From NCBI GenBank assembly GCA_964441955.1, contig CAYTWA010000004.1, positions 82,681 to 146,680 of the forward strand: 64,000 nucleotides of DNA. The letters are read 5' to 3'. Made by a program: the position numbers and the translations under genes. The stretch is from an uncultured Elusimicrobia bacterium. GTDB lineage: Bacteria > Elusimicrobiota > Elusimicrobia > 2-01-FULL-59-12. The notes beneath the pieces were generated by a model. The model ran no database searches, was not told the DNA's origin, and saw only the letters and a program-made list of their open reading frames with translations. This document shows, one piece after another, positions 1,623 to 39,316 of the stretch (the stretch's first letter is position 1; each line of letters begins with the position of its first letter).

Positions 1623-1967
1623 ATGGCCGGCACGATTCACCACGAACTAAAACGCCTCGTCAAAGAAGGGTTATTGCCCAAAGGACAGGTCCTTTTGATT
1701 GGCACTGGCGAGGGCCTGGAAGCCGTTCATTTGCTGGAGCATGGCTACGATGTGGTTGGCGTAGACCCGGACAAAGCCACGGTGCTCGCCACGCGAGAAA
1801 CCGTCTCCAGTCAGGGGTTTTTTGGGTATTTTCAAACTGGCGACCCGGCGCAACTTCCGGTGGAGGACCATTATTTTGATGCGGTTTGTGATTTTTTGGG
1901 TGCCCCGGAGTCGGAAGTCCGGCGGGTCCTTAAGCGCGGGGGGCTCTCGGTGAGGCTTATTCGATGA
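1623..1967 (+). CDS. Small class-I SAM-methyltransferase-like protein (fragment-sized, 114 aa)
   Basis: Gly-rich motif LLIGTGEGLEAVHLLEHGYDVVGVDPD resembles a SAM-binding motif I. ATGA overlap with the downstream gene. Confidence 0.35.
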   Translation: MAGTIHHELKRLVKEGLLPKGQVLLIGTGEGLEAVHLLEHGYDVVGVDPDKATVLATRETVSSQGFFGYFQTGDPAQLPVEDHYFDAVCDFLGAPESEVRRVLKRGGLSVRLIR

Positions 1968-3541
1968 AAGCGCTTGGGTGTTTACTATTTTTAGCCGTAC
2001 CGCTTTTCGCCGCACGCGTCGAGATCCGCGAAGGGCAGTTCTATGTTGACCATTCGCTTTTTTATGTTCGCGGCGTAGGGTACTCGCCGCTTCGGCCGCA
2101 TCAAGCGCCGGGCGGGTCTTACACCGGCATTAATTTCGCGCTGATTGATAAAGATTTTGAACGCATCCGCGCCGCGCGCTTTAACACGCTTCGCACCTGG
2201 GAGCCGCTGTCGCGCGAGGAATTGGCGTTGGCTAAAAAACATGGGCTCATGGTGATCCAAGGGTTGCGTCTGGATGGGCGGCAGGATTTCGGCAAACCCG
2301 CCAACCGGGAAAATGCCCTCGCCCAAGCCCGAGTGGCGGCCGAAACCTCGAAAGAATTCGACAACGTATTGGGCTATTTGATCCTGTCAAAACCGCACCC
2401 ATCGGCTATCGTGGACTCCGGCGTCGAACCCACCCTTTCTTTTTTCCGCGACGTCAAAAAAGAGATCCAAACCATTGACCCGCGCCCCGTGTCCATGGAC
2501 AGCTGGCTGCCCGCGGCGTTTATGGACCACCGCGAATTCGATTTCGTCAGTTTCACGTCGTTTGATTTTTGGCCGCGTTCCATTCAAGAAAGCCTGACCT
2601 TTCCAGGAACTTTGCAGTGGCTTAAAAACCGCTTCGCCCCCGACCGTCCCTTTCTGGTGTCGGCCACAGGCGGCTATGCCGTCTCCGAAGCCTCACGAAC
2701 CGCCAACGGCGGCTGGGGCGGCTTAACCGAAGACGAACAAAGCAGCCGCAACCAAGCCATTTTGCGCCAGGCCGTGGAAGGCCATGCCTCAGGCAGTGTT
2801 TTGGTGTCTTGGATCGATTCCTGGGCCGCGGCGGGCGACCCGAATACGCATGACAACGACCCCTGGGAATGGACTGGCGTTCTGGGAATTGAAACCGACA
2901 GCAAGCGCGATAAAACCGGTGTGCCCCGGAAAATTTATGGCGATCTTACGCAGGCCAATGCGGCGGTAGTCTTAGAACCCAAAGACAACCATTTGTACGC
3001 CACCCAAGAACCGCTGCCCATCCGGGCCGTCTCCGCATTGGATGTGATGTCGGCCCGCTACAGCGTAAACGGGGGGGACTGGATGGCCTTAAACGGCTCG
3101 GCTGCAACCGGGTGGTACGGTTTTACCAAGCTTCCTAAAACCGCCAAACGCCGCCAACGCGTTTCGGTGCAGGTCATGGACAAAGACCAAACCGTCATCA
3201 CGCAGCGTGAAGTGTCTTTCGTGGCCGCCATGCTGCCTGAACGCGTGGCCCTTTTAACCGAACGTACCAAAACGGCCGCCGGTTTCTTTCAATTCACCGC
3301 GGATGTCAAAGACGGTCAAGGCCGCGCCTTAGCCAAACGCCCCGTGCAGTTCGGCTGCTTCTTTCCCATAAGCCTCAAAGAATCCAAAGGCACCGTCCTA
3401 ACCGACGCGAGCGGCCTCGCCCGATGGACCTGTGCGACCCTCCCCGCAAAAGATGACCGCTACATGTACATCGCCGCCGGCACTGACTCCCCGGATAAAA
3501 TCCGCACAGGCGATATGCGTATCTTTGAGCTAACCCCCTAA
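1964..3541 (+). CDS. Secreted hypothetical protein, possibly glycoside-hydrolase-like (TIM-barrel-like)
   Basis: Signal peptide MKALGCLLFLAVPLFAA. 525 aa. Motifs FYVRGVGYSP, NTLRTWEP and WIDSWAAAGDP are suggestive of a GH-like fold only. Confidence 0.4.
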   Translation: MKALGCLLFLAVPLFAARVEIREGQFYVDHSLFYVRGVGYSPLRPHQAPGGSYTGINFALIDKDFERIRAARFNTLRTWEPLSREELALAKKHGLMVIQGLRLDGRQDFGKPANRENALAQARVAAETSKEFDNVLGYLILSKPHPSAIVDSGVEPTLSFFRDVKKEIQTIDPRPVSMDSWLPAAFMDHREFDFVSFTSFDFWPRSIQESLTFPGTLQWLKNRFAPDRPFLVSATGGYAVSEASRTANGGWGGLTEDEQSSRNQAILRQAVEGHASGSVLVSWIDSWAAAGDPNTHDNDPWEWTGVLGIETDSKRDKTGVPRKIYGDLTQANAAVVLEPKDNHLYATQEPLPIRAVSALDVMSARYSVNGGDWMALNGSAATGWYGFTKLPKTAKRRQRVSVQVMDKDQTVITQREVSFVAAMLPERVALLTERTKTAAGFFQFTADVKDGQGRALAKRPVQFGCFFPISLKESKGTVLTDASGLARWTCATLPAKDDRYMYIAAGTDSPDKIRTGDMRIFELTP

Positions 3542-3559
3542 AACCTTTCAGACGGTTTT

Positions 3560-6410
3560 TAACAGGCGATGTGTTTGGCTTGCTTAAGCCTATTGAACGG
3601 TAGGCCCATTGCCGATCCCTTTGGTCGAAGGACATCTTTAAGGCCTGATCCATCTCGGGCAGAATAGGACTACGATGCTTGCCTTGCTCGATTTACGGCG
3701 TTCTCTCGCTGGCGTTCTAGCCGGCCTCTTATGTTGACCGTTGTCCACGAATTGGGCATCGTCTTTTGGCCCTCTTTCGCACTCGTGTATTCCTCGGACT
3801 TATAGTGAGCAAGCCCTCATAGCGGCCCTGGGCCAATTTCTTCGGCCATTTTCAAAAAACGGAATTCGCCTTCGGCAGCAAGCAAGCGCGGCAGGAACCC
3901 ATTTTGGAACACGCGCAACGTACGCCAACGAACCCGATTTTTCATTGCCGGATGGCCAAAGAGTCACTTGGGACGAGGCGCATAAATTAATCACGGAGGG
4001 TCTTATCCATGACCCCTCAACGCTCATTTTTGAATGGGCCGCTTCACAACTGGAGATCAAGCAGCCCTCGTCATTAACAGCGACGCAAACCAAGATACGG
4101 GACAAGCTCGAGCGCGCCTTAAAAGAACTCGACCTCGAACGCGATGTTCCGATTCGTATTGTCCTTTTGGACGGAAAGACTAAAACGCAACGCTTTCCAA
4201 CCTTGGGCGACTCCGTGTGGGCGTTATCCAATACCGCGGATGACGCTCATTATTTGGAAGCCGGCGCCATCGGACATGCCTACCCGTCGGTCTACATGAC
4301 CCGCGAGCTGCTCCGCGACATCTCGCACAAAACGCTCGCCGATCGGCTTAAGGAAGAAATCGGTCATGCGTTGGAGAAAGCGAATGGCGTCCGAAAGGAG
4401 GAACACTGGGAAGATGACCCGAGTCGTTCAAATCATCTCTCCGAGATGAGAGGAGACATCCAACAAGCGGAGCGGTACCGCGAGGGGATATTGGTGGAGT
4501 TGGGTCGCGAATCCCAAGCTCCTATCGTATTGTCCAACAGTGTGGAGCAGCACCTTCGCAATCTGCCCCATGAAGACCTTCAGGCGATCTTCGCGCGACG
4601 ATTGAACCTACGGTTTGAGGCCTATCGGCAACTCTTTTTATCGCTCTGGTCAACGAACCCGATCGCAGCGTTTGAATACCTTGGGGCCGGAGTTCTAACC
4701 GATCAAGATGTCGTTGGCTCGATTCGCGAGTTGAGGGTTGTGCAAGTCCCAGACTGGATGAAAGCCTGCGTCCCTGCAGCTATTCTTAAGGGACGTTTCA
4801 TGGTTCAATATCGCTACGCCAAATCACCAACAATACGAATCGAGTGGGCCTATTTTCCCGATTTAAATCAATGGTTACCGGTATCGGCTGTCACGGTCCA
4901 AAACGATAAGCCCGTCTCAGAGAGAAGGCGAATTCGCAGCGTTTTTGTCATGCGAGATGGTTTTCCGGTTTTTCTGAAGTTTTTTCTAACAGGATTAACG
5001 CAAAAGACTTGGCCGAAATTAGCGGCCGCGGGAAATGAATTCCGTATTTATGGCCAAACACCTGCCTCGGGAGCCGTTTCATTGGTTTCGTCATCGCAAG
5101 TTTCGAATGAGAGCAATATGGAAGCACGAACGGCGGGGGTATATGAATTTGCACGCAACCTACTGGAACTCTACGGCGCCACAATCGACTCCGAAGGGTT
5201 CGCCCATCGACTCGATTGGGAAGGTACCGGAGAAGGCGTGCTTTTTATGCATGCGGTAAGTCGCAGCGCCAACGAGCCAGACAAAATCCTGGCAGCCGTC
5301 ATCATGAGGAACCAGTCACTTCTGGAATCGTTATCTACAAAATTTGAAACCTACTGGATAAAAGCAAGGCTACCCCAGGATCATTCCTCGACAGGTCCCT
5401 TTAGCATGAAACTCGGCACATTTAAGAATTTGGGCACGCACACAGCCTTGCCATTTGAAATCCATCTAAATCGCAAGTGGGCCGGTCGTCCAATAGAGAT
5501 CCAGTTGAGGCGAGGAATTCCAGTTTATATTCGAATATTGGATCAGGACACCGGATTTCCCCTGAAACAACATTTCCTGAAGCTTTTAGAGGTTCGAAGC
5601 CGAGATGGTGAAGTGCTTAAGACGATCAGGCCCTACTATTCCTCCACCTATTCCTCTGATTCCGAGCCCGTAAAAACCGCCCTAGCAATAGCTCAAGCAA
5701 GGGGTGGTTACGTCGTAGTGACAAATTTAAACCTTCGTAAAAGTCCCTATTACATTATTGCTCGAGCTTTTGAACAAACAACGAGAATCCCGCGTCGCAA
5801 CGTCCCAGATGATCAGCAAGCCAATGCTGCAGAAATTGTCTTTTCTCCCTCTATTATTTCGGGTCAGCCTGCGCTTAAATTAAACAAATTGCGTGTTGGC
5901 CGCTATAACCATGATGATCCTTTGTCTGCAGATCCGAGATACCTGGTAAACGTGACGGAATGCAAATTAGATATCCCAAGTCGGAAGATCCCTAATGACG
6001 CTATAAAATTATTTGTTGGTTTTCCTATGAATGTGCGCCGCGCGTTTTCGTCGAAAGTAAATCAAAGAAATTGGTCGATATTTATAAACGAATTGCTTTT
6101 CGAATGGCTTCAAACACCACAAGGTTCGACTTTTCTGCCCATTCAAAAAATGACAGAGATACCCAATCATGTGGGTTTTCGTTTCAGAATTCCTCGCGAA
6201 CTATATGCGGCTGTTGAAGATCGTCTTTTGGATTCGCCGTTGGGCGTTACCGATATCATCCGCACTCTGGTGAAAAATTATGTTAACCGACGGCAGCAAC
6301 CGGATCCCTCGTGCCTAACCGCTGCGTAGCACGAAACTTAACCCTGGGGACGCCCCCCCTTACTTTTTGTCCATGGGGGTTCCATAATGAGGCGCAAAAT
6401 GGAAACGATG
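3560..6410 (+). repeat. Segmental duplication copy 1 (upstream leader + paralog gene + downstream 32-bp palindromic element)
   Basis: Near-identical nucleotide blocks shared with 7750..10650, e.g. 3590..3730 vs 7770..7920 and 4010..4230 vs 8190..8410. Identical 32-mer GGTTCCATAATGAGGCGCAAAATGGAAACGAT at 6378..6409 and 10617..10648. Confidence 0.85.
3741..6329 (+). CDS. Large paralogous protein A (862 aa). Signal-peptide region interrupted by an in-frame TGA (3735..3737); possibly a pseudogene or N-terminally truncated
   Basis: Same frame as the upstream ATG 3675 (MLALLDLRRSLAGVLAGLLC*). Copy 2 has TTA where copy 1 has TGA. The first ~500 aa are highly similar to 7856..10510; the C-terminus has two RHH-like motifs. 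Confidence 0.6.
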   Translation: MSTNWASSFGPLSHSCIPRTYSEQALIAALGQFLRPFSKNGIRLRQQASAAGTHFGTRATYANEPDFSLPDGQRVTWDEAHKLITEGLIHDPSTLIFEWAASQLEIKQPSSLTATQTKIRDKLERALKELDLERDVPIRIVLLDGKTKTQRFPTLGDSVWALSNTADDAHYLEAGAIGHAYPSVYMTRELLRDISHKTLADRLKEEIGHALEKANGVRKEEHWEDDPSRSNHLSEMRGDIQQAERYREGILVELGRESQAPIVLSNSVEQHLRNLPHEDLQAIFARRLNLRFEAYRQLFLSLWSTNPIAAFEYLGAGVLTDQDVVGSIRELRVVQVPDWMKACVPAAILKGRFMVQYRYAKSPTIRIEWAYFPDLNQWLPVSAVTVQNDKPVSERRRIRSVFVMRDGFPVFLKFFLTGLTQKTWPKLAAAGNEFRIYGQTPASGAVSLVSSSQVSNESNMEARTAGVYEFARNLLELYGATIDSEGFAHRLDWEGTGEGVLFMHAVSRSANEPDKILAAVIMRNQSLLESLSTKFETYWIKARLPQDHSSTGPFSMKLGTFKNLGTHTALPFEIHLNRKWAGRPIEIQLRRGIPVYIRILDQDTGFPLKQHFLKLLEVRSRDGEVLKTIRPYYSSTYSSDSEPVKTALAIAQARGGYVVVTNLNLRKSPYYIIARAFEQTTRIPRRNVPDDQQANAAEIVFSPSIISGQPALKLNKLRVGRYNHDDPLSADPRYLVNVTECKLDIPSRKIPNDAIKLFVGFPMNVRRAFSSKVNQRNWSIFINELLFEWLQTPQGSTFLPIQKMTEIPNHVGFRFRIPRELYAAVEDRLLDSPLGVTDIIRTLVKNYVNRRQQPDPSCLTAA

Positions 6411-6474: not shown

Positions 6475-7659
6475 TTAAGCTTCGTAAATGCGGGATACAT
6501 CTTGCCATGGGAGCGCGGTCACGTGGTCGGCTAAACGCATGGCGCGCGGCGCACGACAAATAATAAAAGCCTCCGTGGCTTGAGGATATTCCTTCAGAAA
6601 CGTGATGAGGTGCCGCGCATCCTGCAACGTCACAGACTCTGACCATTTCACTTCGACTGGGATGAGCTTCTCCGAATGACGCAACACCCAGTCGACCTCC
6701 GCTCCAGAGGTATCCTTCCAAAAATGAAGCGTGGTTCGAGGCAAAAAGCGCCGCGTGCTTCGAATCAGTTCCAGTCCTACCCACTGCTCGAACCAGTGAC
6801 CCCAGATCGAAAGCGCCGGTCGAACGCCTTCTTTCGCGGCGAAGCGACGTACACCCAAATCAAAAAAAAGATAACGCTGCGACCGAATGAGTTTTTTACG
6901 CGTGGCGCTTTGCGTCCAAGGCTCCACACGTTCAGTAATTAAGCAATCTTCCAAAATTTGGTAGTAGTCCATGATCGTGGAATGTGAAACACCGATGGTC
7001 TGGGATAATTTCTTAAAGTTCACGATGAGACCCGATTCGGCGGCCGCCAATTCCAAAAAGCGGCCAAAGGTGCCGACGTTTCTAACAATCGCTTCAGATC
7101 GAATTTCTTCCTCTAGGTAACTGGTCACGTAGGAATCCAACTCAGCGTCTTTTTGCGATTTCTCCGGCGTAAGCATGATCTGCGGAAGCGCTCCATAACG
7201 CAGGTGATCTTCGATGCGCGCGTGGGGGTATTCCGCGTGTGTCAGCGGATCCATTCGAAACGAAAGCACCCGTCCTGGGAGCAAATTGACCTGGCCGCGT
7301 TTTAGTTTTCGTGCCGACGAGCCGGTAAGAATAAATCGTGCTTTTTTGTTATCGATGAGATGCTGAACGACGTCCATGATCTGCGGAACTTTTTGGACTT
7401 CATCCAGAATCACGAGAGGGGGTTTGGCCTGTTTGCGCGAAGGTAATGCCGCAATTTCTCCTACAAGCGCTGAGGGGTTCATTTCGTACTTCTGTCGGAT
7501 TTTTGGCAAAAGAAACGACAACGAGAGATCGGCTGACAATGTCCCTAAAAAGGTGGACTTCCCTGTTTGACGAGGCCCTAGGAGTAGAACGCTTTTTCCC
7601 TTTGAGAGCGCTTCGTTTAAATAAGGGTCGATAGCTCGTTTGATTAACATCAGGATCAA
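6475..7659 (-). CDS. AAA+ ATPase (AAA_14 / DUF4143 family)
   Basis: Walker A GPRQTGKST and Walker B LVILDEVQ. C-terminal DUF4143-like region. 394 aa. Confidence 0.85.
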   Translation of the reverse strand: MILMLIKRAIDPYLNEALSKGKSVLLLGPRQTGKSTFLGTLSADLSLSFLLPKIRQKYEMNPSALVGEIAALPSRKQAKPPLVILDEVQKVPQIMDVVQHLIDNKKARFILTGSSARKLKRGQVNLLPGRVLSFRMDPLTHAEYPHARIEDHLRYGALPQIMLTPEKSQKDAELDSYVTSYLEEEIRSEAIVRNVGTFGRFLELAAAESGLIVNFKKLSQTIGVSHSTIMDYYQILEDCLITERVEPWTQSATRKKLIRSQRYLFFDLGVRRFAAKEGVRPALSIWGHWFEQWVGLELIRSTRRFLPRTTLHFWKDTSGAEVDWVLRHSEKLIPVEVKWSESVTLQDARHLITFLKEYPQATEAFIICRAPRAMRLADHVTALPWQDVSRIYEA

Positions 7660-7699: not shown

Positions 7700-7765
7700 G
7701 GTTATCGAGGTTCGAGGTCTTTAACGCGGTAGGTGGCGGCGGGGTCGTTGACGGTTGGCTCGCTT
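7700..7765 (-). pseudogene. 3'-terminal remnant of a membrane winged-helix regulator gene (...DPAATYRVKDLEPR*)
   Basis: About 30/36 nt identity to the 3' ends of genes 10703..11416 and 36745..37425. The minus-strand translation retains the DPAATY(G/R)VK motif but there is no upstream ORF. Confidence 0.35.
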
Positions 7766-10650
7766 GGGCCTATTGAACGGTAGGCACATTGCGCGGTGGC
7801 TTTGGTCGAAGGACATCTTTAAGGCCTGATCCATCTCGGGCAGAATAGGACTACGATGCTTGCCTTGCTCGATTTACGGCGTTCCCTCGCTGGCTTTCTA
7901 GCCGGCCTCTTATGTTTACCATTGTCCGTGAATGGGGCATCGTTTTTTGACCCTCTTTCTCACCCGCACATTCCTCCAATTTACAGTGAACAAGCTCTCG
8001 CCGCCGCCCTGGGTCAGTTTCTTCAGCCATTTTCAAAAAACGGAATTCGTCTCCGGCAGCAAGAAAGCGCGGCAGGAACCCATTTTGGAACACGCGCAAC
8101 GTACGCCAACGAAGCCGATTTATCGTTACCGGATGGTCAAAGAGTCACGTGGGACGAGACACATAAATTAATCACGGAGGGTCTTATCCATGACCCCTCA
8201 ACGCTCATTTTTGAATGGGCCGCTTCACAACTGGAGATCAAGCAGCCCTCGTCATTAACAGCGACGCAAACCAAGATACGGGACAAGCTCGAGCGCGCCT
8301 TAAAAGAACTCGACCTCGAACGCGATGTTCCGATTCGTATTGTCCTTTTGGACGGAAAGACTAAAACGCAACGCTTTCCAACCTTGGGCGATTCGGTGTG
8401 GGCGTTATCCAATACCGTGGACGACGCTCATTATTTGGAAGCCGGTGCTATCGGACATTCCTACCCGTCCGTTTACATGACCCGCGAGCTGCTCTGCGAC
8501 ATCGCGGACAAGACGCTCGCTGATCGGCTTCAAGAAGAAATCCGTCATGCGCTGGAGAAGGCGAATGGCGTCCGAAAGGCGGAACACTGGGAAGATGACC
8601 CGAATCGGTCAGAGCATCTCTTTACTTTAAGAGGAGACATCCAACAAGCTGAGCGGTACCGAAAGGGAATTTTGGAAGAGTTGGCTCGTCTATCCCAATC
8701 CCCTATCGTATTGTCCGACAGCGTGGAGCAGCAGATTCGCGATCTACCCTATCAAGACCTTCAGGCGATCTTCGCGCGACGCTTGAACCTACGGTTTGAG
8801 GACTATCGGCAACTCTTTTTATCGCTCTGGTCAACGAACCCGATCGCAGCGTTTGAATACCTTGGGGCCGGAGTTCTAACCGATCAAGATGTCGTTGGCT
8901 CGATTCGCGAGTTGCGAGACGTGCATGTTCCTTCCTGGATGAGAAACAACGTGCCTCCACCTATTCTCAAGGGGCGTTTCATGTTTCAATACCAACAGGC
9001 CAAATCACAGACAATCCGAATCGAGTGGGGTTATTTTCCCGATTTAAATCACTGGTTGCCTGTATCGGCTGCCACGGTCCAAAGCGATAAACTCATTACT
9101 ACGATAAATCAAATTCGCAGCGTTTTTGTCATGCGAGACGGTTCTCCGGTTTATCTAAAATATTTTCTAAGAGGCCTAACAAAAAAAGCTTGGTCCAAAT
9201 TGGCAGCCTCGGGGAACAATTACCGTATTTACGGTCAGGTATCGCCCTCGGGGACCGTTTCGCTCGTTACATCGCCGCGACCTGTGGCTGAGGGCAACAA
9301 GCAGGCAAGAGTGACTGGGGGATACATGTTCTCTCGCAACCCACTTGAACTCTATAGCGGTGAAATCGACCCTGAAGGGTTCGCCCACCGACTCGATTGG
9401 GAAGGTACGGGCGAAAGCGTGCCTTTTATGCATGCGATAAAGCGTGTCGTCAACCGGCCCGACCAAATCCTTGCGGCCGCGGTCACCCAGTGGGCCCAAC
9501 AGACGCTTGAGACTCTAACTGAAAAGCACGAGACCTTTTGGATAAGAACACGGCTACCATTAAAGGCCGTTTCGCAGCGTTCATCTATTTCCATGCAACT
9601 TGGGATCTTTAAGAGTTTTGGCATTGATTGGGGATTTCCGCTTGATATCAATGTCCATAATAAATGGGCAAATCATTCAATAGAAGTCAAAATTAAAAAT
9701 GGCTTTCCCGTTTGCATTCAGATTTTGCATTGCGATACGGGAAAAATGCTTGGTTTGTGGTTTTTTAAAATTTTAGAGGTCCGGGACCGCGAAGGAAAAG
9801 TGCTTGCCATGATAAGACCCTATAATTCCGATCTTCAGCCAGAAACGGAGGCTGTTAATATCGCCTCTAAATTGGCTCACGAACTTGGAGCTGAGGTCGT
9901 GGTAACCAATCTGGAACTTTATCGAGAACAAACACATTACAGGGCAGCGGCTTTGGGGCAGACGGCGAAGGTCGGGTTGGACCACGCCCAGTATCACAAG
10001 AAAGCCAAGGACGCAGAATTCGTTTTTGCTCCTATTCGTATAGCCAGACGTTTTGCGCTGAAGCCAATACGTCTGCGTGTCGGCCAATACAACCACCATG
10101 ACCCCCTCTCCAATAACAAAAGGGAACTGCTTGGCGTGACGGAATATCCGTTGGATTTTTCAGAACTTCCCCTTCCGTCCGATCTCATAACAAAAACTGT
10201 AAGATTTCCTGGCGCTCTATTAGATCGGTTTAGGGAAATAATGCCGGTGGGAAAAAGGATGTCGATTGTGATTAACACATTGCTTGCCCAATGGCTTGCA
10301 ACGTCACCTGGCGTGGCAATCAATAAATATGGGTCAACGCCATCGAATCAAAGGTCGACTAGTTTTAAAATTTCCCTCGCACTGCTTCGGGGGGTCGAAA
10401 ACCAAATTCAGGGCTTACCTTATTCCGTTGAAGTTATTATTCGCACGCTGGTGCAAAATTACGTTGACCAACATGGGCAATCCAATCGCGATTGCCTTAC
10501 AGCCTCCTAATCCGAACCTCGCAAGCGGCCTACGAAAATGGGGACGGTCCAAAAAAACGCTGACGTTACTTGTTTAGGACTGAGCGTCCCCATTTACTCT
10601 TGATTTATGACCCTATCGGTTCCATAATGAGGCGCAAAATGGAAACGATA
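7750..10650 (+). repeat. Segmental duplication copy 2
   Basis: See copy 1. Sequence identity is mosaic: perfect blocks alternate with diverged blocks. Confidence 0.85.
7856..10510 (+). CDS. Large paralogous protein B (884 aa), intact N-terminal signal peptide
   Basis: ATG start. Signal peptide MLALLDLRRSLAGFLAGLLCLPLSVNGA. Paralog of 3741..6329. C-terminal tandem RHH-like motifs (VRFPGALLDRFREIMPVGKRMSIVINTLLAQWL; FKISLALLRGVENQIQGLPYSVEVIIRTLVQNYV). Confidence 0.7.
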   Translation: MLALLDLRRSLAGFLAGLLCLPLSVNGASFFDPLSHPHIPPIYSEQALAAALGQFLQPFSKNGIRLRQQESAAGTHFGTRATYANEADLSLPDGQRVTWDETHKLITEGLIHDPSTLIFEWAASQLEIKQPSSLTATQTKIRDKLERALKELDLERDVPIRIVLLDGKTKTQRFPTLGDSVWALSNTVDDAHYLEAGAIGHSYPSVYMTRELLCDIADKTLADRLQEEIRHALEKANGVRKAEHWEDDPNRSEHLFTLRGDIQQAERYRKGILEELARLSQSPIVLSDSVEQQIRDLPYQDLQAIFARRLNLRFEDYRQLFLSLWSTNPIAAFEYLGAGVLTDQDVVGSIRELRDVHVPSWMRNNVPPPILKGRFMFQYQQAKSQTIRIEWGYFPDLNHWLPVSAATVQSDKLITTINQIRSVFVMRDGSPVYLKYFLRGLTKKAWSKLAASGNNYRIYGQVSPSGTVSLVTSPRPVAEGNKQARVTGGYMFSRNPLELYSGEIDPEGFAHRLDWEGTGESVPFMHAIKRVVNRPDQILAAAVTQWAQQTLETLTEKHETFWIRTRLPLKAVSQRSSISMQLGIFKSFGIDWGFPLDINVHNKWANHSIEVKIKNGFPVCIQILHCDTGKMLGLWFFKILEVRDREGKVLAMIRPYNSDLQPETEAVNIASKLAHELGAEVVVTNLELYREQTHYRAAALGQTAKVGLDHAQYHKKAKDAEFVFAPIRIARRFALKPIRLRVGQYNHHDPLSNNKRELLGVTEYPLDFSELPLPSDLITKTVRFPGALLDRFREIMPVGKRMSIVINTLLAQWLATSPGVAINKYGSTPSNQRSTSFKISLALLRGVENQIQGLPYSVEVIIRTLVQNYVDQHGQSNRDCLTAS

Positions 10651-10702: not shown

Positions 10703-11416
10703 TTAAACCGAACCAACCCCTTTAACGCCGTAGGTAGCAGCGGGGTCGCTGGGGGAGGATCCACTGCGAACGAGCTCCCCTTCTTCTAACAATTCAGCCA
10801 GCAAGCGCGTCACGCTGCGGCGGGGAAGCGTTAAGGCTTCTCGAATCGTTTTGGGGGTTGAAGGGCCGTTTTGGCGCAGATAGGCGAGCACGTTTTCTCG
10901 TTCATCTCCGGAGGCGTTCCCGCGCGCTTTTCCACCCACGCGCTTGCGGTATTGGCGCAGGGCATAGGTGCCTAAAAAGAGGGCAATCACCTGCATGGTA
11001 ATCCGGGGAAGTTCGGGCGGCATGGGAATGGTGGGATCAGCAATTCGCCAGGTGACGGCCACCGCCCATAGAAGAAACCACGAGGTGATAAACGGCCCGC
11101 CTTTGCGCAGGCGCTCCGGCCAACCCTCGGGGTCCGGGTCCGCCGGGGCAATCGTTAACCGCTTGATCTCGGGGGCCCCCGCGTAGGCGCCCAGCACAAA
11201 GAGGTACATCTCCGCTAAAGGGTCCTGCGCTTTAAAGTTGCCGCGTGTAAGGATAAAGAGCAGGTTGTAAGCCAGCAAGTAAGCCGTCATTCCAAAGGCA
11301 AAAGGGCGCATGAAGAGGCTGCCGTCCTTCGGGGAGGGGACGCTAGGTTCGTGGGCTTCTGCGGGGTGCGCCATGCGGTGGACTATAGTATTTTTTGGCT
11401 CAGTTAACTGGCTCAC
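10703..11416 (-). CDS. Membrane-tethered winged-helix (MarR/PadR-like) regulator, paralog 1
   Basis: 3-4 predicted TM helices followed by a C-terminal wHTH (LAYLRQNGPSTPKTIREALTLPRRSVTRLLAELLEEGELVR). Conserved N-terminal FMRPF and C-terminal DPAATYGVKG shared with 36745..37425. True start may be an internal Met (11374 or 11311). Confidence 0.6.
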   Translation of the reverse strand: MSQLTEPKNTIVHRMAHPAEAHEPSVPSPKDGSLFMRPFAFGMTAYLLAYNLLFILTRGNFKAQDPLAEMYLFVLGAYAGAPEIKRLTIAPADPDPEGWPERLRKGGPFITSWFLLWAVAVTWRIADPTIPMPPELPRITMQVIALFLGTYALRQYRKRVGGKARGNASGDERENVLAYLRQNGPSTPKTIREALTLPRRSVTRLLAELLEEGELVRSGSSPSDPAATYGVKGVGSV

Positions 11417-11580: not shown

Positions 11581-11790
11581 ATGAATCCCATTGCTAAATT
11601 TATCAAGGTCCAAAGAAATCTATCTCGGTTGACACAAGTCCAACTCGCCACAAAAGCGGGTGTTGGTTTGCGTTTTATCCGCGATCTAGAACAGGGCAAA
11701 GAATCACTCCGGTCAGATATCTTAAACAAACTCCTTCGCTTTTTTGGGAAACAGCTAGGGCCCGTTGATTTGCCGAGAGATGAAGAATGA
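11581..11790 (+). CDS. hipB: HipB-like XRE-family HTH antitoxin (69 aa)
   Basis: HTH QVQLATKAGVGLRFIRDLEQGK. Stop overlaps the next start (ATGA). Confidence 0.75.
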   Translation: MNPIAKFIKVQRNLSRLTQVQLATKAGVGLRFIRDLEQGKESLRSDILNKLLRFFGKQLGPVDLPRDEE

Positions 11791-12116
11791 AAGCCGGCGT
11801 GTTTTATGGCGATATTTCTGCTGGAATTCTAACGAAGCATGACGGCTCCTATACCTTCTGTTATGAAAAGGCGTATTTAGACCGTCCGGACGCCCAACCC
11901 ATCAGTTTTTCACTTCCGCTTCAAATAGAGCCCTTTGAATGGAAAGAGTTTCCACCTTTCTTCGATGGTTTACTGCCTGAGGGATGGTTGTTGGAGTTGA
12001 GTGCTTCGAAATTCAAAATCGACCCCAAAGATAAGTTTTCAATGTTGTTGGCGATGGGTCATGATGGGATTGGTGCCGTAAGCGTTCAGGCATTGGAGGG
12101 CCCGGGTGCCGGCTAA
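11787..12116 (+). CDS. hipS: HipS-like protein (HipA N-terminal subdomain as a separate 109-aa polypeptide)
   Basis: HipA_N motifs FFDGLLPEGW and GHDGIGAVSV. Overlaps the downstream kinase gene. Confidence 0.7.
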   Translation: MKAGVFYGDISAGILTKHDGSYTFCYEKAYLDRPDAQPISFSLPLQIEPFEWKEFPPFFDGLLPEGWLLELSASKFKIDPKDKFSMLLAMGHDGIGAVSVQALEGPGAG

Positions 12117-13035
12117 CTGTCTGAGCTGTCATCGTCCGATACAGGGAGAAGCCTACCATTCCGCTTGTTTAATGAACCTTTTCGGAGTCGCCCGAGCGCC
12201 GAAGGTGTCCTTTGCGATTCCCGACATCCCCATCAAACTACGAGAGCCCACAGAAAAGATTTCACCCATTTCGGGAGTGCAGATCAAAACCTTTGTGCGA
12301 CTATACCCGCAGACACTTTCGTTGGATATCGCGCCTTCAGGGGGGACACACATTTTAAAACCCGATCCGCCTCAATACCCCGAACTATCGACCCTTGAAA
12401 ATGTATGCATGGCGATGGCAGCTGAATTGGAAATGGACGTTCCGCCGCACGGGTTATTCCCCATGCCAAACGGGATGCTTTGTTACGTGGTACGTCGATT
12501 TGACCGAGAGGCCGATGGCCGAAAAATTTCAAAAGAAGACTTGGCCCAAATCATCGGGGTTCCCTCAGACTCCAAATACCGAAGCTCGCTCGAATCGATC
12601 GGAAAGGCCATCCGGAAACTGGCCACGACGCCAGGGCTTGAGGCGTTGCGTTTTTGGGAACGGGTTTTGTTTTGCTACATGATCGGCAATGGGGACATGC
12701 ATCTTAAAAATTGGTCGTTGTTGAAAACATCGGACGGGCGCGTCCAATTATCACCCTGCTACGACTTCGTTTCTTCGGAAGTTTACTTTCGTGATGAGGA
12801 ATCCGCTCTCACCTTAAACGGCAAGAAGGCTCGCTTAAAACGGCTGGATTTCGATATCCTGGCCGCCTATCTCAAGATTGACCCCAAGGCGGCCTCCAAG
12901 GTGATTCAGATGTTTGAAGCGAAACATCCTGCCCTCATCGAAATGGTTATGGGTTCGCCTTTAACGTTGGACAAGAAAGAGAAGTTACTCGAAACGATGC
13001 AAGCTCGCCTGGCTGTTTTGTCCAAATCATCGTGA
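12106..13035 (+). CDS. hipT: HipT-like Ser/Thr kinase toxin (HipA C-terminal kinase core, 309 aa)
   Basis: Gly-rich loop SPISGVQIK at residues ~53-61. Catalytic motif GNGDMHLKNWS and DFVSS. GTG start. Stop overlaps the mfd start. Confidence 0.75.
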   Translation: MPANCLSCHRPIQGEAYHSACLMNLFGVARAPKVSFAIPDIPIKLREPTEKISPISGVQIKTFVRLYPQTLSLDIAPSGGTHILKPDPPQYPELSTLENVCMAMAAELEMDVPPHGLFPMPNGMLCYVVRRFDREADGRKISKEDLAQIIGVPSDSKYRSSLESIGKAIRKLATTPGLEALRFWERVLFCYMIGNGDMHLKNWSLLKTSDGRVQLSPCYDFVSSEVYFRDEESALTLNGKKARLKRLDFDILAAYLKIDPKAASKVIQMFEAKHPALIEMVMGSPLTLDKKEKLLETMQARLAVLSKSS

Positions 13036-16219: not shown

Positions 16220-16765
16220 TTGCTTTTGAGGCACCAGGTCCCAGACGACAAACCCCTCGTCATCTTGGATGAAATTCATAAATACGCCAAGTGGCGCGGG
16301 TTGATTAAAGGACTGCACGATACTCGAAAATCCAAGCAGCGTTTTCTGGTCTCGGGTTCAGCGCGCCTGGACTACTACCGTAAGGGAGGAGATTCGCTTC
16401 AGGGTCGCTACCATTATTACCGGCTACATCCGTTTAGTCTTCGGGAGTTAGACCCTTGCGCATCTTCGTCATCGCTTGCATCGCTTCTGCGGTTCGGTGG
16501 ATTTCCCGTACCAGTCTTGGCGGGAAGCGACCGAGACCACCGCCGCTGGCAAAAAGAACATACGGAACGAATCCTGAACGAAGACCTAAGAGATCTCGAG
16601 CGAGTGCGCGAAATTTCCCTTATCGAACTTTCGATACCTTGGTGCCAGGCACCCGATTCCCCATTCCAATTCGCTCCGCCGAATGGTTTGTTTCATGCGT
16701 GTCTAAAAAATTTGACACCATTTTCAACGAGTTCTGCGGCCAATGGATTCCGTGACCATAAATAA
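16220..16765 (+). pseudogene. 5'-truncated, C-terminally aberrant fragment of an AAA_14/DUF4143 ATPase (paralog of 6475..7659)
   Basis: Begins at the Walker-B region LVILDEIHKY with no Walker A. Only 87 nt separate it from the mfd stop. The C-terminal half diverges from the intact copy. Confidence 0.5.
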
Positions 16766-23371: not shown

Positions 23372-26130
<2,759 letters not shown>

Positions 26131-26131
<1 letters not shown>

Positions 26132-28638
26132 TGGCCGATACAAAACTACCCATCCCCGAAGAACCCAACGACCGCATCATCGCTCGAAACATCGAGGATG
26201 AAATGAAAACCTCGTACATCGACTACGCGATGAGCGTGATCGTAGGCCGCGCGCTGCCCGATGTCCGGGATGGTTTTAAGCCCGTCCACCGCCGCATTCT
26301 TTTTGCCATGAAAGAAATGGGGCTTACCCACCGCTCGGCCTATAAAAAATCGGCACGCGTCGTCGGGGACGTTCTGGGTAAATTCCACCCGCACGGCGAC
26401 TTGTCGGTCTACGACGCCATGGTGCGCATGGTGCAGGAATTTTCGCTGCGCTACCCCATGATCGACGGCCAGGGGAATTTTGGATCCATCGACGGCGACT
26501 CCCCCGCCGCCATGCGCTACACCGAAGTTCGCTTAGGGGCCATTGCCGACGAGGTGCTGGGCGACATCGATAAAGAAACCGTCGACTTTGGCCCCAACTA
26601 TGATGGCTCGATGGTGGAACCGCTGGTCCTACCCGCGAAGCTCCCGAATCTTTTAGTCAACGGGTCTTCGGGAATCGCCGTGGGCATGGCGACCAACATG
26701 CCGCCGCACAATTTGTCCGAAGTCTGCGATGCGATCATCGCCTACATTGAAAATCCCAACCTCACGACAGCCGAAATCATGAAGATCATGAAAGGGCCCG
26801 ATTTTCCAACCGCCGGCTTTGTTTTGGGCCGCGGCGGAATTAAAGACTATTTCGAAACGGGCCGAGGGTCGGTGGCGGTTCGCGCCAAGACAGAAATCGA
26901 GGATATCCGAAGCGGAAAGCAAGCCATCATCGTGACTGAGATCCCATATCAGGTGAACAAAACCACCCTGATTGAATCCATCGCCGATTTGGTTCGCGAT
27001 AAACGAATCGAGGACATTTCCGACATCCGCGACGAATCCGACCGCGACGGCATCCGCCTCGTCATTGAAATCAAGCGCGAAGGCAACGCCCAAATCGTTT
27101 TAAACCAGCTTTATAAACACACCTCGCTTCAAACCACCTTCGGCGTCATCATGCTGGCTTTAGTCGGCGGCCGGCCGAAAGTGATCCCGATGCGAGACAT
27201 GCTGAAATATTACGTCGAACACCGCCGCGAGGTGGTGATCCGCCGCACGCGTTTCGAGCTCGCCAAGGCCGAAGCCCGCGCTCATATTTTGGAAGGGTTA
27301 AAAATCGCGCTCGACAATTTAGACAAGATCATCAAAACGATCCGCGAATCCAAAGACACCGATACGGCCCGCATGAAGTTGATCGAGAACTTTAAGCTCT
27401 CGCGCATTCAGGCCCAAGCCATTCTAGACATGCGCCTGCAGCAGCTCACCGGGCTAGAGCGCAAAAAAATTGAAGACGAGTACGAAGAGCTCTTGAAGAC
27501 GATTGCCCGATTAAAAGGGATCTTAGCGGACCCCCGGCAGGTGCTTAACATCATTGAAACCGAGCTCTCCGAACTTAAGGAAAAATACGGCGATGAACGC
27601 CGCACCAAAATTACGGCTCCCGCGGAAGATTTGGCCATTGAAGATTTGATCGTGGAAGAAGACGTGGTGGTGACTTTCTCTCACGCCGGCTATGTGAAGC
27701 GACTGCCGGTCACCGCCTACAAAGCGCAAAAGCGCGGCGGCAAGGGCGTGACCGGGATGACCACGCGCGATGAAGATTTTGTCGAACAGTTGTTTGTGAC
27801 CAACACCCATGCTTACTTGCTGGTTTTCACCAATAAAGGCCGCGTGCACTGGACGCGCGTGTTTGAGCTTCCCGAAGCGGGGCGCGCCGCAAAAGGCAAA
27901 TCGATCGCCAATTTCATTCAACTCTCCGGTCAGGATGAAAAGATAACCGCGGCGATCCCAGTCCGGTCTTTTGAAGAAGAAGCCGCGAAAGAAACCCATC
28001 TGTTTATGTGCACCAAAGAAGGCACCGTCAAAAAGACGCCCTTGGCCGAATTCGCCAACCCGCGCCGCGGCGGCATCATTGCCATCAAGCTGGAAGACGG
28101 CGATAGTTTGATCGGCGTCAAACAAACCGACAAAAAAGCCGAAATCATTTTAAGCACCCGTGAAGGCTTGGCCATACGCTTTAAGGGAGAGGATGTGCGC
28201 CCGATTGGCCGTGCGGGCATGGGCGTACGCGGCATTCGGTTGGATAAAGGCGACGTGGTAGTCGGGATGGAAGTAGTGGATAAAAAAGACGTGCTCTTGG
28301 CCGCCACGGAAAACGGTTACGGCAAGCGCACGGAAGTCGAAGAGTACCGCTTGCAGTCCAGAGGCGGCCACGGCGTCATCAACATTAAAACGAGCGACCG
28401 CAACGGTCCCGTAATCGGCGTGCGCAAAGCCAACGATGGCGATGACATCATGCTCATGACCCAAAAAGGCATGTCGATTCGTCTGCCCGCCACGGGCGTT
28501 TCGATCATTGGCCGCAATGCTCAAGGGGTGCGTCTGGTTCGCTTGGAAGAGGGCGATAAACTCTCCGCCGTTACCCCGATGGCCAAAGAAGACGAAGAAG
28601 GCGACGACAAACAAGACGAATTACCGCTTAAGAGGTAG
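26131..28638 (+). CDS. gyrA: DNA gyrase subunit A
   Basis: Active-site region [13 protein letters not shown]-like [16 protein letters not shown]-terminal beta-pinwheel repeats. Confidence 0.97.
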
Positions 28639-36744: not shown

Positions 36745-37425
36745 TTACGGTTTTAAGCCGTAGGTGGCAGAGGGGTCAAAGGGGCCGCCGTGGCGGACGA
36801 GGGCGCCGGATTGAACTAGATTTTTTAGGAGGCGCGCTACGCTGCGCCGGGGAATTCCGGTGGCGTCTGAAAGGGCTTTAGGTGTTTGCGAGTTTTGGCG
36901 GCGGAGTTCTTCCATCAAGCGTGCCGCATCCGCATCAAGCAGAATGTTTGCCGCACCTGTGGCCGCTTCGGACCGGGGTTGTCTCGCCCGGCGGTATTGG
37001 CGAAGGGTGTAACTCCCAAAGAAAACCCCCACCACTTTGATGGCTGTTTCCTTAAGTTCGGGCGGCATAGAGCAGGCAGGGTCGGCCATACGCCAAATGC
37101 CGGCCGCCAGCAGCATTCCAAGCCACAAGGTGACGAGCGGACCGCCTTTGCGAATTTGCTCTTGCCAGCCGATTTCATCGGAATCCTTGCGTTTTAGCAG
37201 CTGAGTAATTTCGGCCCCGCCGGCATAAGCCACCAAGATCAACAAATACACATCGCTCCAGCGGTCGGGTGAACTGATGGCGCCATGCGTGGCCATGAAC
37301 AAAATGTTTTGCATGGTCAAAAATACGGTTCCAACCAACACAAAGGGCCGCATAAACGAACTCACGTGACTATTCGGAAGGGGGGTGGATGTTTCCATGA
37401 CCATGCCAACTATACAATAACCCAT
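36745..37425 (-). CDS. Membrane-tethered winged-helix regulator, paralog 2
   Basis: Same architecture as 10703..11416 (FMRPF..., TM helices, wHTH, ...DPSATYGLKP). Divergent from the large + strand cluster. Confidence 0.6.
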   Translation of the reverse strand: MGYCIVGMVMETSTPLPNSHVSSFMRPFVLVGTVFLTMQNILFMATHGAISSPDRWSDVYLLILVAYAGGAEITQLLKRKDSDEIGWQEQIRKGGPLVTLWLGMLLAAGIWRMADPACSMPPELKETAIKVVGVFFGSYTLRQYRRARQPRSEAATGAANILLDADAARLMEELRRQNSQTPKALSDATGIPRRSVARLLKNLVQSGALVRHGGPFDPSATYGLKP

Positions 37426-37945: not shown

Positions 37946-39316
37946 ATGACCAGATCACTCTATCGGTGTTTCTCCTTCGCGCTCACCTTTCTGTTGGTTT
38001 TTGAAGCCAATCGTGTAGCCTTTGCGGTGCCATGTCCGGGCTCGGCCATTCATGCTTTTCAACCACCGTCTGCCGTTTTCAGCGAACAAGCGCTTCAGGC
38101 GGGCTACGTACTGGCCTTTCACCGAGAAGTGGTGCCTGTGGCAGCACGAATACGTCAAAGTCTTGGCCATGTTTGGCTTGATATTGGTGGAAAGTGGAGT
38201 GCCTTGCCGCGACCTTTGCGATGGAGACTTCAGGCCGCCGGAGGTGCGGCGGGAATGGTGTTATGGAAACTCCTATCTGACAATGTGACGAGTCATCCCA
38301 CTGCAATGGTAGGGATGGTAATCGATCCCACCCAGTGGCTGACGGTAGCTCTTTCTGCAAAACACTTGCTGACCCCAATTCTAAGAACAAAGAAATTAAC
38401 CCAACGACAGCAGAATGTGTTGCTCGATCTTTTAACGGCAGGCATGGACCCGAATTTCCTCGCCAAGTCCGCGAGCTGGTTGTTTATTATCAACGCTACC
38501 GAAGACGGAGAAGATCGTCCCGTCTTTGCGAGAGTAAGGGCTTTGAGATCGGTGACGACCGATTTCGATGATTACATCCGTTCTCCTCTTGCCGAAGGCG
38601 AAAAGAAGCCAAATTGGATGATCCTCGATTTCAATCTAACCAATGTAAGGACGAAGGTGGCAATGATTCGCCGCATTAACGGCCGCGACGAGCAAGTGCC
38701 GTCCCAGGTGCTTAGAGAATTTCTCCGGGTCGATGTCAAACTGTGGGAGGCCATTCTCCTGATGGGAGATCAGATGAGCGTGAAAGTGCAAAATGCGTCT
38801 GAGCTTCTTTCTATATACGCCAAAATGGCGACATACCCAAGCTATGTGAATCAATGGAAAGCCGTCATCGGAAACTCGATGAGCAAAAGGCATTTGCCTT
38901 TGATGGCTAGAGCCTTTGATGCCGATCCTCAAACAACAACCGAGATCATGAAAGTGATTTATCGTGAAATTAAAAGCGATCAAATTCTAAATGAGGATGA
39001 ACGCGCAGAAGGCGCATTAGATCAGGATCCCTCGCGGCCCGCTCGTGTCGAGAGTTATAACGCGAACTTATCGATTGTTGGTCTTCGTCGTAACCAGTGG
39101 TACGCAAAAGAAGTGTTTCGAAATTTAAGAGAAGTTTTGGGGGCGGGGCTTGAGGCTACTCGCCAACGAGTGGCGTTACGAGAACTCGAGCAGCTGTCGG
39201 GCTCAATCGCGAGGCAGTTAAAGAAGTTTTTCCTGAAATACGAAAGACTCGAACGCACCTGGCAAGAGGTTGAGCCCATGGGGAGCCCCTATCGCCTGTT
39301 TAAGGCTTCCTCCTAG
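37946..39316 (+). CDS. Secreted hypothetical protein (456 aa)
   Basis: Signal peptide FSFALTFLLVFEANRVAFA. No recognisable domain. Lower GC than housekeeping genes (by eye). Confidence 0.55.
   Translation: MTRSLYRCFSFALTFLLVFEANRVAFAVPCPGSAIHAFQPPSAVFSEQALQAGYVLAFHREVVPVAARIRQSLGHVWLDIGGKWSALPRPLRWRLQAAGGAAGMVLWKLLSDNVTSHPTAMVGMVIDPTQWLTVALSAKHLLTPILRTKKLTQRQQNVLLDLLTAGMDPNFLAKSASWLFIINATEDGEDRPVFARVRALRSVTTDFDDYIRSPLAEGEKKPNWMILDFNLTNVRTKVAMIRRINGRDEQVPSQVLREFLRVDVKLWEAILLMGDQMSVKVQNASELLSIYAKMATYPSYVNQWKAVIGNSMSKRHLPLMARAFDADPQTTTEIMKVIYREIKSDQILNEDERAEGALDQDPSRPARVESYNANLSIVGLRRNQWYAKEVFRNLREVLGAGLEATRQRVALRELEQLSGSIARQLKKFFLKYERLERTWQEVEPMGSPYRLFKASS

Follow-up and report, generated by a model that had tools for sequence, protein, structure and literature searches.

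Two paralogous genes lie on the forward strand of the 64-kb window (the whole stretch of DNA that was analysed), and one of them, copy 1, is interrupted early by an in-frame TGA. From its ATG (3675-3677), copy 1 runs to a TGA at codon 21 (3735-3737), inside the signal-peptide codons, as the first-pass annotation had claimed. Codons 18-23 read CTC TTA TGT TGA CCG TTG, with the TTG at 3741-3743, whereas copy 2, which starts at ATG 7856 and has the translation MLALLDLRRSLAGFLAGLLCLPLSV, reads CTC TTA TGT TTA CCA TTG; both readings had been quoted correctly. The frame of copy 1 was also said to continue past the stop, and it does so for 862 more codons, to TAG 6327-6329. An open frame of this length beyond a TGA far exceeds chance, and copy 1 is therefore a gene that has been interrupted, not an ORF that arose at random. 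The two reading frames are of equal length, exactly 2655 nt (885 codons) each, and at codon 21 they differ by one base, G in copy 1 versus T in copy 2, at position 3736. The features of the locus are the following.

3574-3674, + strand: upstream region common to both copies, probable promoter and 5′ UTR; aligns with 7755-7855
3675-3737, + strand: signal-peptide coding remnant of copy 1, 20 codons MLALLDLRRSLAGVLAGLLC then TGA (read from the sequence)
3735-3737, + strand: in-frame TGA at codon 21, next base C; TTA in copy 2 (from comparison of the copies)
3741-6329, + strand: intact 862-codon body of copy 1, TTG to TAG, starting 3 nt past the TGA
3945-6329, + strand: copy 1 as called in a public protein collection, 794 aa from TTG 3945
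6475-7650, − strand: AAA_14/DUF4143 ATPase gene between the two copies, outside the repeat
7856-10510, + strand: copy 2, the intact paralog, 884 aa
7916-7918, + strand: TTA (Leu21) of copy 2, counterpart of the copy 1 TGA

Upstream of the genes, the copies are identical from 3619 on, and the perfect tract extends to 3703 (85 nt). It includes a Shine-Dalgarno-like AGGA motif at 3666-3669, 5 nt ahead of ATG 3675. The product predicted from TTG 3741 starts MSTNWASSFGPLSH and has no hydrophobic leader, and the public call begins further downstream, 207 nt past the TGA. The neighbourhood of copy 1 is accessory-looking, with a toxin-antitoxin module, ATPase fragments, and a truncated glycoside-hydrolase-like gene.

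The probable export signal and the gene family

Copy 2 consists of a putative signal peptide, module A (residues ~70-290), module B (~300-775), and a C-terminal tail. In its arrangement of charge and hydrophobicity, the N-terminus looks like a Sec signal: a positively charged n-region (Arg8 and Arg9 within MLALLDLRRS) is followed by an uncharged run of 22 residues from residue 10, and the maximum 9-residue Kyte-Doolittle mean is 2.39, compared with 2.3-3.7 for the leaders of homologs. By inspection only, V25-N26-G27 followed by A28 forms a candidate cleavage site, in agreement with the rule of small neutral residues at −3 and −1; copy 1 has T-N-W at the same positions, and an alternative site there, also by inspection, is A28-S29-S30|F31. 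A hydrophobic N-terminal leader is present in 7 of the 8 remote module-B homologs, the eighth being an N-terminally partial sequence. The earlier description of this segment as a signal peptide is thus upheld in the sense that it is signal-peptide-like, by its arginine pair, its uncharged stretch, and its leader-bearing homologs.

The gene family is undescribed; it combines an export signal with two conserved modules that have no match in Pfam, NCBIfam, or the PDB. Searches for a function gave no match in Pfam, NCBIfam, PADLOC, or the PDB sequences, and an AlphaFold2 model built on a two-sequence alignment reached a mean pLDDT of 31. No close ortholog that could polarise codon 21 was found: a word-indexed search returned the two copies only, whether it was run with one query sequence or with the family alignment, an exhaustive HMMER search returned only relatives at 35% identity or less, and the genomes of the GTDB species representatives, scanned at the protein level, gave no match. 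Members of the family are known from a handful of uncultured bacteria only.

Constraint, gene conversion, and age of the lesion

Apart from the TGA, no damage is seen in copy 1. The dN/dS between the copies is ~0.3-0.4 whichever region is compared, the numbers of derived changes are balanced in a relative-rate test with outgroups (69 versus 66), residues conserved in the outgroups are kept alike (37 versus 36 of 58), and all module-A motifs are kept in copy 1. No further stop occurs in the 862 codons of its body. Within the 2586 nt of this body, 4.5% of single substitutions create a stop, which corresponds to 1.16 stops expected per 1% of neutral divergence; the lack of new stops therefore limits the neutral divergence since any inactivation to less than ~2.6%. 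If copy 1 is dead, its death is very recent, within that divergence, and the combination of unrelaxed constraint with an absence of extra lesions is compatible with a pseudogene only if it is very recent.

Sequence is exchanged between the copies by gene conversion, with shared perfect tracts of 85, 230, and 78+ nt and a dS that ranges from 0.03 to >2. This makes it plausible that one copy carries a fresh lesion, which conversion could also revert. As for the position of the lesion, only 2.6% of all nonsense changes that could arise would hit the signal peptide, and only 1.1% would do so with a canonical start within three codons.

Explanations for the in-frame TGA

The first-pass annotation had considered TGA recoding and judged it unlikely on the grounds that TGA terminates many genes, and this judgement stands: 9 of the 32 long ORFs end in TGA, including mfd and dnaN, where the Pfam match extends to residue 367 of 368, so that the domain runs up to the stop. 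No TGA-split pairs of long ORFs were found elsewhere in the window, and code reassignment is effectively refuted. Programmed recoding of the UGA, as selenocysteine or under a reassigned code in which UGA means Gly or Trp, is thus most improbable. The in-frame UGA adjoins a Cys codon and, as in genes with selenocysteine insertion, lies within a long ORF, but nothing further speaks for recoding. Indeed, the paralog has Leu (TTA) at codon 21, not Cys, and the UGA of copy 1 falls in a signal peptide that would be cleaved off, so that a catalytic selenocysteine at this place would be senseless. Copy 1 also has neither a match to a SECIS family nor a stable hairpin 3′ of the UGA: the one Rfam match with E ≤ 1 was to an unrelated sRNA (13 bits), and folding of the sequence 3′ of the UGA gave no significant structure (z = 0.25). 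No tRNA was found within the 64-kb window.

Two options had been offered in the first-pass annotation, a pseudogene or reinitiation at TTG 3741; both hold as candidates. Low-level UGA-C readthrough and an assembly error or strain variant, to which the annotation had not given full weight, are added here as two further candidates. We give a probability of roughly 0.5 to the reading that a single, very recent lesion has made copy 1 of this duplicated secreted-protein gene a pseudogene or null allele. A very young dead or crippled gene copy is the most likely explanation, and such copies are ordinary in bacterial genomes. The stop exists, TGA is a genuine stop in this genome, and the rest of the gene is undamaged. 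Codon 21, a Leu codon (TTA) within the hydrophobic signal-peptide core, would have become TGA by a T-to-G change, with the result that ribosomes starting at the conserved ATG 3675 would release a 20-residue peptide and the exported full-length protein would no longer be made from copy 1. TTA is probably the ancestral state, since both the intact copy and the homologs with leaders point to an ancestor whose frame was open. The lesion is probably recent. Any residual expression, by a restart at UUG 3741 or by UGA-C readthrough, would then presumably be incidental and not a selected function. Copy 1 resembles young single-lesion bacterial pseudogenes in having one disabling substitution relative to an intact copy, no other decay, and an accessory-looking neighbourhood. 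It differs from them in that the lesion strikes the export signal, no more than 2.4% into the gene, and in that a canonical start 3 nt downstream makes loss of the product less certain. Two observations count against a pseudogene, namely, that the body of copy 1 shows no sign of decay and that the position of the lesion is unusual for a random nonsense hit.

These same observations speak for the rival reading of copy 1 as a functional signal-less paralog, in which ribosomes would translate the 20-codon remnant, terminate at UGA 3735 and restart at UUG 3741 to give an 862-residue cytoplasmic version, while copy 2 supplies the exported one. We consider this unlikely. Restart after an early nonsense codon is known from classical cases such as lacI and T4 rIIB, and the geometry of copy 1 is a match, as a UUG in frame follows the stop after a spacer of 3 nt. 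The spacing (TGA, CCG, TTG; +3 nt) is compatible with termination-reinitiation, as in E. coli a spacer of +2 nt keeps 30-95% of native termination-reinitiation, whereas one of 38 nt largely abolishes it (PMC10666635); in the same study, a distance of about +2 nt is tolerated, and restarts have failed once it reaches about 20-38 nt. Within 200 nt of the stop, no canonical start other than TTG 3741 lies in frame, and overlapping or abutting stop-start pairs are common in the window (for example, gyrB/gyrA at 26129-26133 and the ATG at 1964 over the stop at 1967). The body is intact and conserved as well as that of copy 2, although a very recent pseudogene predicts an intact body equally, and the 1.1% given above is the joint chance that a random nonsense hit strikes the signal peptide and has a start no more than three codons away. 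Module A also occurs in giant proteins with methyltransferase, GNAT, and glycosyltransferase domains, and these cytoplasmic-type contexts make it plausible that the module works inside the cell. Nevertheless, almost all module-B homologs bear a leader, which would make a cytoplasmic form atypical, and no second genome with the same arrangement, nor any close relative, was found in the collections searched. The TTG is present in copy 2 too and was thus not created for a restart. There is no Shine-Dalgarno support for either downstream canonical start (TTG 3741 and TTG 3945), the best anti-SD duplex before TTG 3741 being −1.7 kcal/mol. However, many bona fide genes of the window score equally poorly, including dnaN, gyrB, and the giant ORF, and since the genes of this organism mostly lack the motif, such scoring is uninformative on start choice. 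Copy 1 differs from known restarts in having no Shine-Dalgarno motif before the restart codon and in that the restart would remove a targeting signal and not merely a dispensable N-terminus. Quite unlikely, in our view, is the more specific proposal of a one-step relocalisation, in which a nonsense mutation in the signal core, together with a pre-existing UUG, would have turned one of two gene-converting paralogs from an exported into a cytoplasmic protein, reinitiated behind a 20-codon leader that stems from the former signal peptide. Leaky termination is improbable as the main explanation: a few ribosomes would insert Trp at the stop and make a full-length protein with LLCWPL, giving low-level export from copy 1. 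The stop has the context UGA-C, the tetranucleotide of known leaky stops with Trp insertion, and UGA-C was reportedly described by Poole, Brown and Tate in 1995 as the least efficient termination signal in E. coli. Trp at this position would keep the hydrophobic stretch (maximum Kyte-Doolittle mean 2.47), and native E. coli genes are known to undergo UGA readthrough (PMC10570021). However, the usual level of readthrough is about a percent or less, and copy 1 differs from the documented cases in having no stimulatory structure 3′ of the stop.

It is also possible, though on balance unlikely, that the TGA is not fixed in the organism. As the genome is metagenome-assembled and the two paralogs are nearly identical, the TGA could be a mistake in the assembly or consensus, or else a variant of a minority strain. 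The organism is uncultured; its best GyrB match is to an unclassified MAG (64% identity), and MAGs of Endomicrobium and Elusimicrobia match at 61-62%. ENA and Logan contigs from the same population were found through the flanking methyltransferase and ATPase genes; their coverage in these other assemblies is 4.5-4.9x, and all independent contigs end ~30 nt into the 85-nt perfect repeat, which indicates that the region is hard to assemble. Compared with the window over 3647 nt, one of these assemblies shows a G/T difference, at 2262 (Gly versus Val), of the same type as that at 3736. Against an error, the window is 100% identical to four Logan contigs and one ENA contig over ~12 kb elsewhere, and with a discordance of ~1e-4 per base, an error at a given site would be rare. 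Furthermore, copy-specific bases lie close by, at 3714 (G in copy 1) and 3740 (G), with others at 3747-3748 (AC), and a chimeric join to copy 2 would carry TTA at this codon instead of TGA. No independent sequence spanning 3736 was found in exact-protein look-ups of copy 2, of copy 1 (as 794 aa and as 862 aa), and of the upstream GH2-like gene, and JGI metagenomes gave no match to the DNA pattern across 3736 and none in a protein scan.

Consequences for annotation and for the family

From the perspective of annotation, copy 1 should be flagged as interrupted, and the call of a 794-aa protein from TTG 3945 should not be used. If it is a pseudogene, or if the TGA is an assembly variant, the stop matters for annotation only. 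If the signal-less product is made and used, the pair would offer a clean case from nature in which a duplicate changes compartment through one base change and a translational restart. For the family as a whole, functional information of any kind would be new.

The stop codon and the reading frames of the two paralogs

The stop codon lies in one of two related genes that share an orientation and start 4181 nt from each other:
3675-6329, copy 1, the gene frame with an in-frame TGA at codon 21
7856-10510, same orientation, copy 2, the intact paralog
6475-7650, strand opposite to the copies, an AAA_14/DUF4143 ATPase gene between them

Copy 1 begins with ATG at 3675, and its codons 18-23 read CTC TTA TGT TGA CCG TTG, with the TGA at 3735-3737 and the last TTG at 3741-3743. 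Past the TGA, 862 further codons are open in the same frame, ending with TAG at 6327-6329. The equivalent codons of copy 2 (ATG at 7856) read CTC TTA TGT TTA CCA TTG, and its unbroken product has 884 residues with the N-terminus MLALLDLRRSLAGFLAGLLCLPLSV. Both frames span exactly 2655 nt, protein identity is 64%, and the TGA differs from the sense codon of copy 2 by a single base, G versus T at 3736. Re-reading of the sequence thus confirmed the first-pass annotation, which had described the TGA in copy 1, the TTA in copy 2 and the continuation of the frame downstream.

TGA terminates 9 of the 32 long ORFs in the window (TAA 18, TAG 5), including mfd and dnaN, where it stands one residue past the end of the Pfam match. 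No long ORF pairs split by TGA were found elsewhere in the window. The sole Rfam match in 3400-4100 at E ≤ 1 was an unrelated sRNA model (13 bits), and the fold of the 86 nt from 3725 was no better than that of shuffled sequence (z = 0.25). Selenocysteine sites usually align with cysteine in homologs; the residue of copy 2 aligned with the TGA is leucine. Recoding of UGA was therefore set aside as extremely unlikely, and the earlier argument against it, that TGA ends many genes here, is borne out. Two same-frame pairs of long ORFs are separated by a single TAG, 37946-39316 and 39332-40360 (TAG at 39314-39316) and 55122-55679 and 55686-57089 (TAG at 55677-55679); they could be coincidental, with a one-in-three likelihood for each pair, or be further interrupted genes.

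Protein family and genomic setting

The N-terminus of copy 2 contains Arg8-Arg9, 22 uncharged residues (maximum 9-residue hydropathy 2.39) and V-N-G preceding Ala28. The signal-peptide call is based on this residue layout and on the N-termini of relatives. HMMER, run exhaustively against 1.84 billion representative proteins, retrieved only copy 1 and 17 remote relatives of ≤35% identity, and these 17 divide the protein into two conserved parts:
Module A, residues ~70-290, motifs GTHxGTxxTY, FDExH, LFxGxxK, YxEAGxGG and EHAxxK
Module B, residues ~300-775, motifs RRFNL, EWAW...WLP, FLKxLEIR, VVVTNL, AEVVYDPS and IRLGxYxHxDPL

Module A also occurs within giant multidomain proteins, alongside methyltransferase, GNAT, HEAT or glycosyltransferase domains, and module B in proteins of 500-900 residues. 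Because seven of the eight module-B proteins start with a hydrophobic leader, the remaining one being N-terminally partial, the family appears to be typically exported. The layout of copy 2 and the leaders of its relatives make the first-pass annotation of the interrupted segment as signal-peptide codons a well-founded one; the putative product from TTG 3741 (MSTNWASSFGPLSH...) has no hydrophobic N-terminus. One module-B protein is annotated to a Candidatus Omnitrophota MAG, and every named one is a "hypothetical protein". Pfam, NCBIfam, PADLOC and the sequences in the PDB gave no match for the family, and a structure model, at a mean pLDDT of 31, was too poor to use. Judged by sequence, the paralogs belong to an undescribed family composed of a signal peptide and modules A and B.

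The window is bacterial chromosome adjoining the replication origin (G+C 52%), with mfd, two surA-like genes, pdxA, ksgA, dnaA, dnaN, gyrB and gyrA. The best GyrB matches among species-representative genomes are only 64% (an unclassified MAG) and 61-62% (Endomicrobium and Elusimicrobia MAGs), so the organism is an uncultured, deep-branching bacterium; the sequence almost certainly comes from a metagenome-assembled genome. In PADLOC, the ATPase between the copies hits PDC-S01, a candidate defence family (E = 6e-62). The ORF at 16220-16765, whose AAA_14 match is confined to the last 70 positions of the domain and which is 34% identical to residues 78-137 of that ATPase, appears to be the remnant of a second DUF4143-type ATPase, truncated at the N-terminus. 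At 1623-3541, a 114-aa methyltransferase ORF overlaps a 525-aa ORF by 4 nt; the glycoside-hydrolase-2 TIM-barrel match of the latter begins at residue 19, so this ORF lacks the customary N-terminal domains. Methyltransferase domains also adjoin module A in remote relatives. Consecutive ORFs at 11581-13035 encode an HTH_3 protein (69 aa), a HipA N-terminal-domain protein (Couple_hipA, 109 aa) and a HipA_C kinase (309 aa), a layout that we take to be of the tripartite HipB-HipS-HipT toxin-antitoxin type rather than a frameshifted hipA. Paralogous minus-strand genes at 10703-11416 and 36745-37425 (42% protein identity, C-terminal MarR-like winged helix) adjoin accessory genes, the HipBST-like module and a PIN-domain ORF, respectively. 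The 4593-residue ORF at 40455-54236 has a signal-like stretch at its N-terminus (MRKTPFRSWLSAVLVSALLIDPHWAQA), lacks any Pfam domain and is related neither to the paralogs nor to their giant-protein relatives.

Divergence, base call and possible translation of copy 1

Similarity between the copies begins ~100 nt 5′ of the ATG and includes an AGGA 5 nt ahead of the start codon. Divergence along the gene is a mosaic, with synonymous values from 0.03 (codons 101-150 and 301-350) up to saturation in the last third, and tracts of perfect identity cover 85 nt (3619-3703), 230 nt (3981-4210) and at least 78 nt (4622-4699). Mosaic and tracts indicate what is probably repeated, ongoing gene conversion, in the 5′ half only. 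The TGA lies 32 nt past the end of the 85-nt tract, and synonymous divergence around it is 0.34. As a chimera with copy 2 would give TTA, and copy-specific bases at 3714 and 3740 bracket the site, the TGA must derive from reads, be they many or few.

Same-population contigs (ENA assembly ERZ3430527; Logan assemblies of SRR7369911, SRR7369912 and SRR7369924) show 100% identity with the window across ~12 kb, with an ENA coverage of only 4.5-4.9x. One ENA contig has a single G/T difference from the window in 3647 nt, at 2262 (Gly versus Val at codon 100 of the upstream ORF 1964-3541), where two Logan contigs side with the window. All contigs approaching the paralogs end ~30 nt inside the perfect 85-nt repeat, and none spans 3736. 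At a discordance of about 1e-4 per base, and with a stop resulting from 4.5% of changes, the risk of an artefactual premature stop somewhere in the 64 kb is not negligible, roughly 0.3 per window.

No sign of decay was found in the body of copy 1, the frame downstream of the TGA, in dN/dS, derived sites, conserved columns, motifs or stops. The dN/dS between the copies is 0.42 for the full alignment; four regions taken separately each give 0.31-0.35. With eight module-B homologs as outgroups, derived-state sites number 69 in copy 1 and 66 in copy 2 (p = 0.86), and 37 and 36, respectively, of the 58 near-invariant columns are retained, as are the module-A motifs in both. Of all single substitutions possible in the 2586-nt body, 4.5% create a stop, so that each 1% of neutral divergence is expected to bring 1.16 new stops, indels uncounted; zero extra stops therefore limit the time since any loss of constraint to ~2.6% divergence or less (5% level). 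Either the TGA arose very recently or selection still acts on the body.

The only canonical in-frame starts within 130 codons after the TGA are TTG 3741 and TTG 3945, the first ATG coming at about codon 208. Neither TTG has a Shine-Dalgarno motif, a criterion that discriminates little between starts because pairing is weak for most window genes. TTG 3945, from which the public protein collection entry for copy 1 runs (794 residues), is 207 nt from the stop, and TTG 3741 is 3 nt from it. In E. coli reporters, a +2 nt spacer kept 30-95% of native termination-reinitiation and 38 nt cut it by 80-100% (PMC10666635). Abutting or overlapping stop/start pairs are common in the window, as in gyrB/gyrA. 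By analogy with these data and pairs, a restart at 3741 would be mechanistically reasonable, whereas one at 3945 would not.

Explanations for the stop codon

The first-pass alternative, a pseudogene or a restart at TTG 3741 giving a signal-less protein, is supported on sequence grounds as a two-way alternative. Our default, at a probability of about 0.5, is a real stop without selected function, that is, a young single-lesion pseudogene or null allele in which any restart or readthrough is incidental. It requires nothing beyond what is seen, and the accessory-looking neighbourhood fits. However, the position of the lesion counts against it as the whole story: under a uniform model, calculated post hoc, only 2.6% of possible nonsense substitutions in the gene fall in the signal peptide, 14.5% have a canonical start within three codons, and 1.1% do both. 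This joint share keeps alive a functional signal-less paralog made by termination-reinitiation, which we nevertheless consider unlikely. An assembly error or strain variant is rather unlikely. Export maintained by readthrough is very unlikely: the base after the TGA is C, termination in E. coli was reportedly found by Poole, Brown and Tate in 1995 to be weakest at UGA-C, and Trp at position 21 leaves the hydrophobic core intact, but such readthrough usually amounts to about a percent or less.

Nonsense pseudogenes, restarts after early nonsense codons, translational coupling and leaky UGA are all textbook mechanisms, and the TGA in copy 1 is a fresh instance of mechanisms already known. The novelty rests with the gene family.
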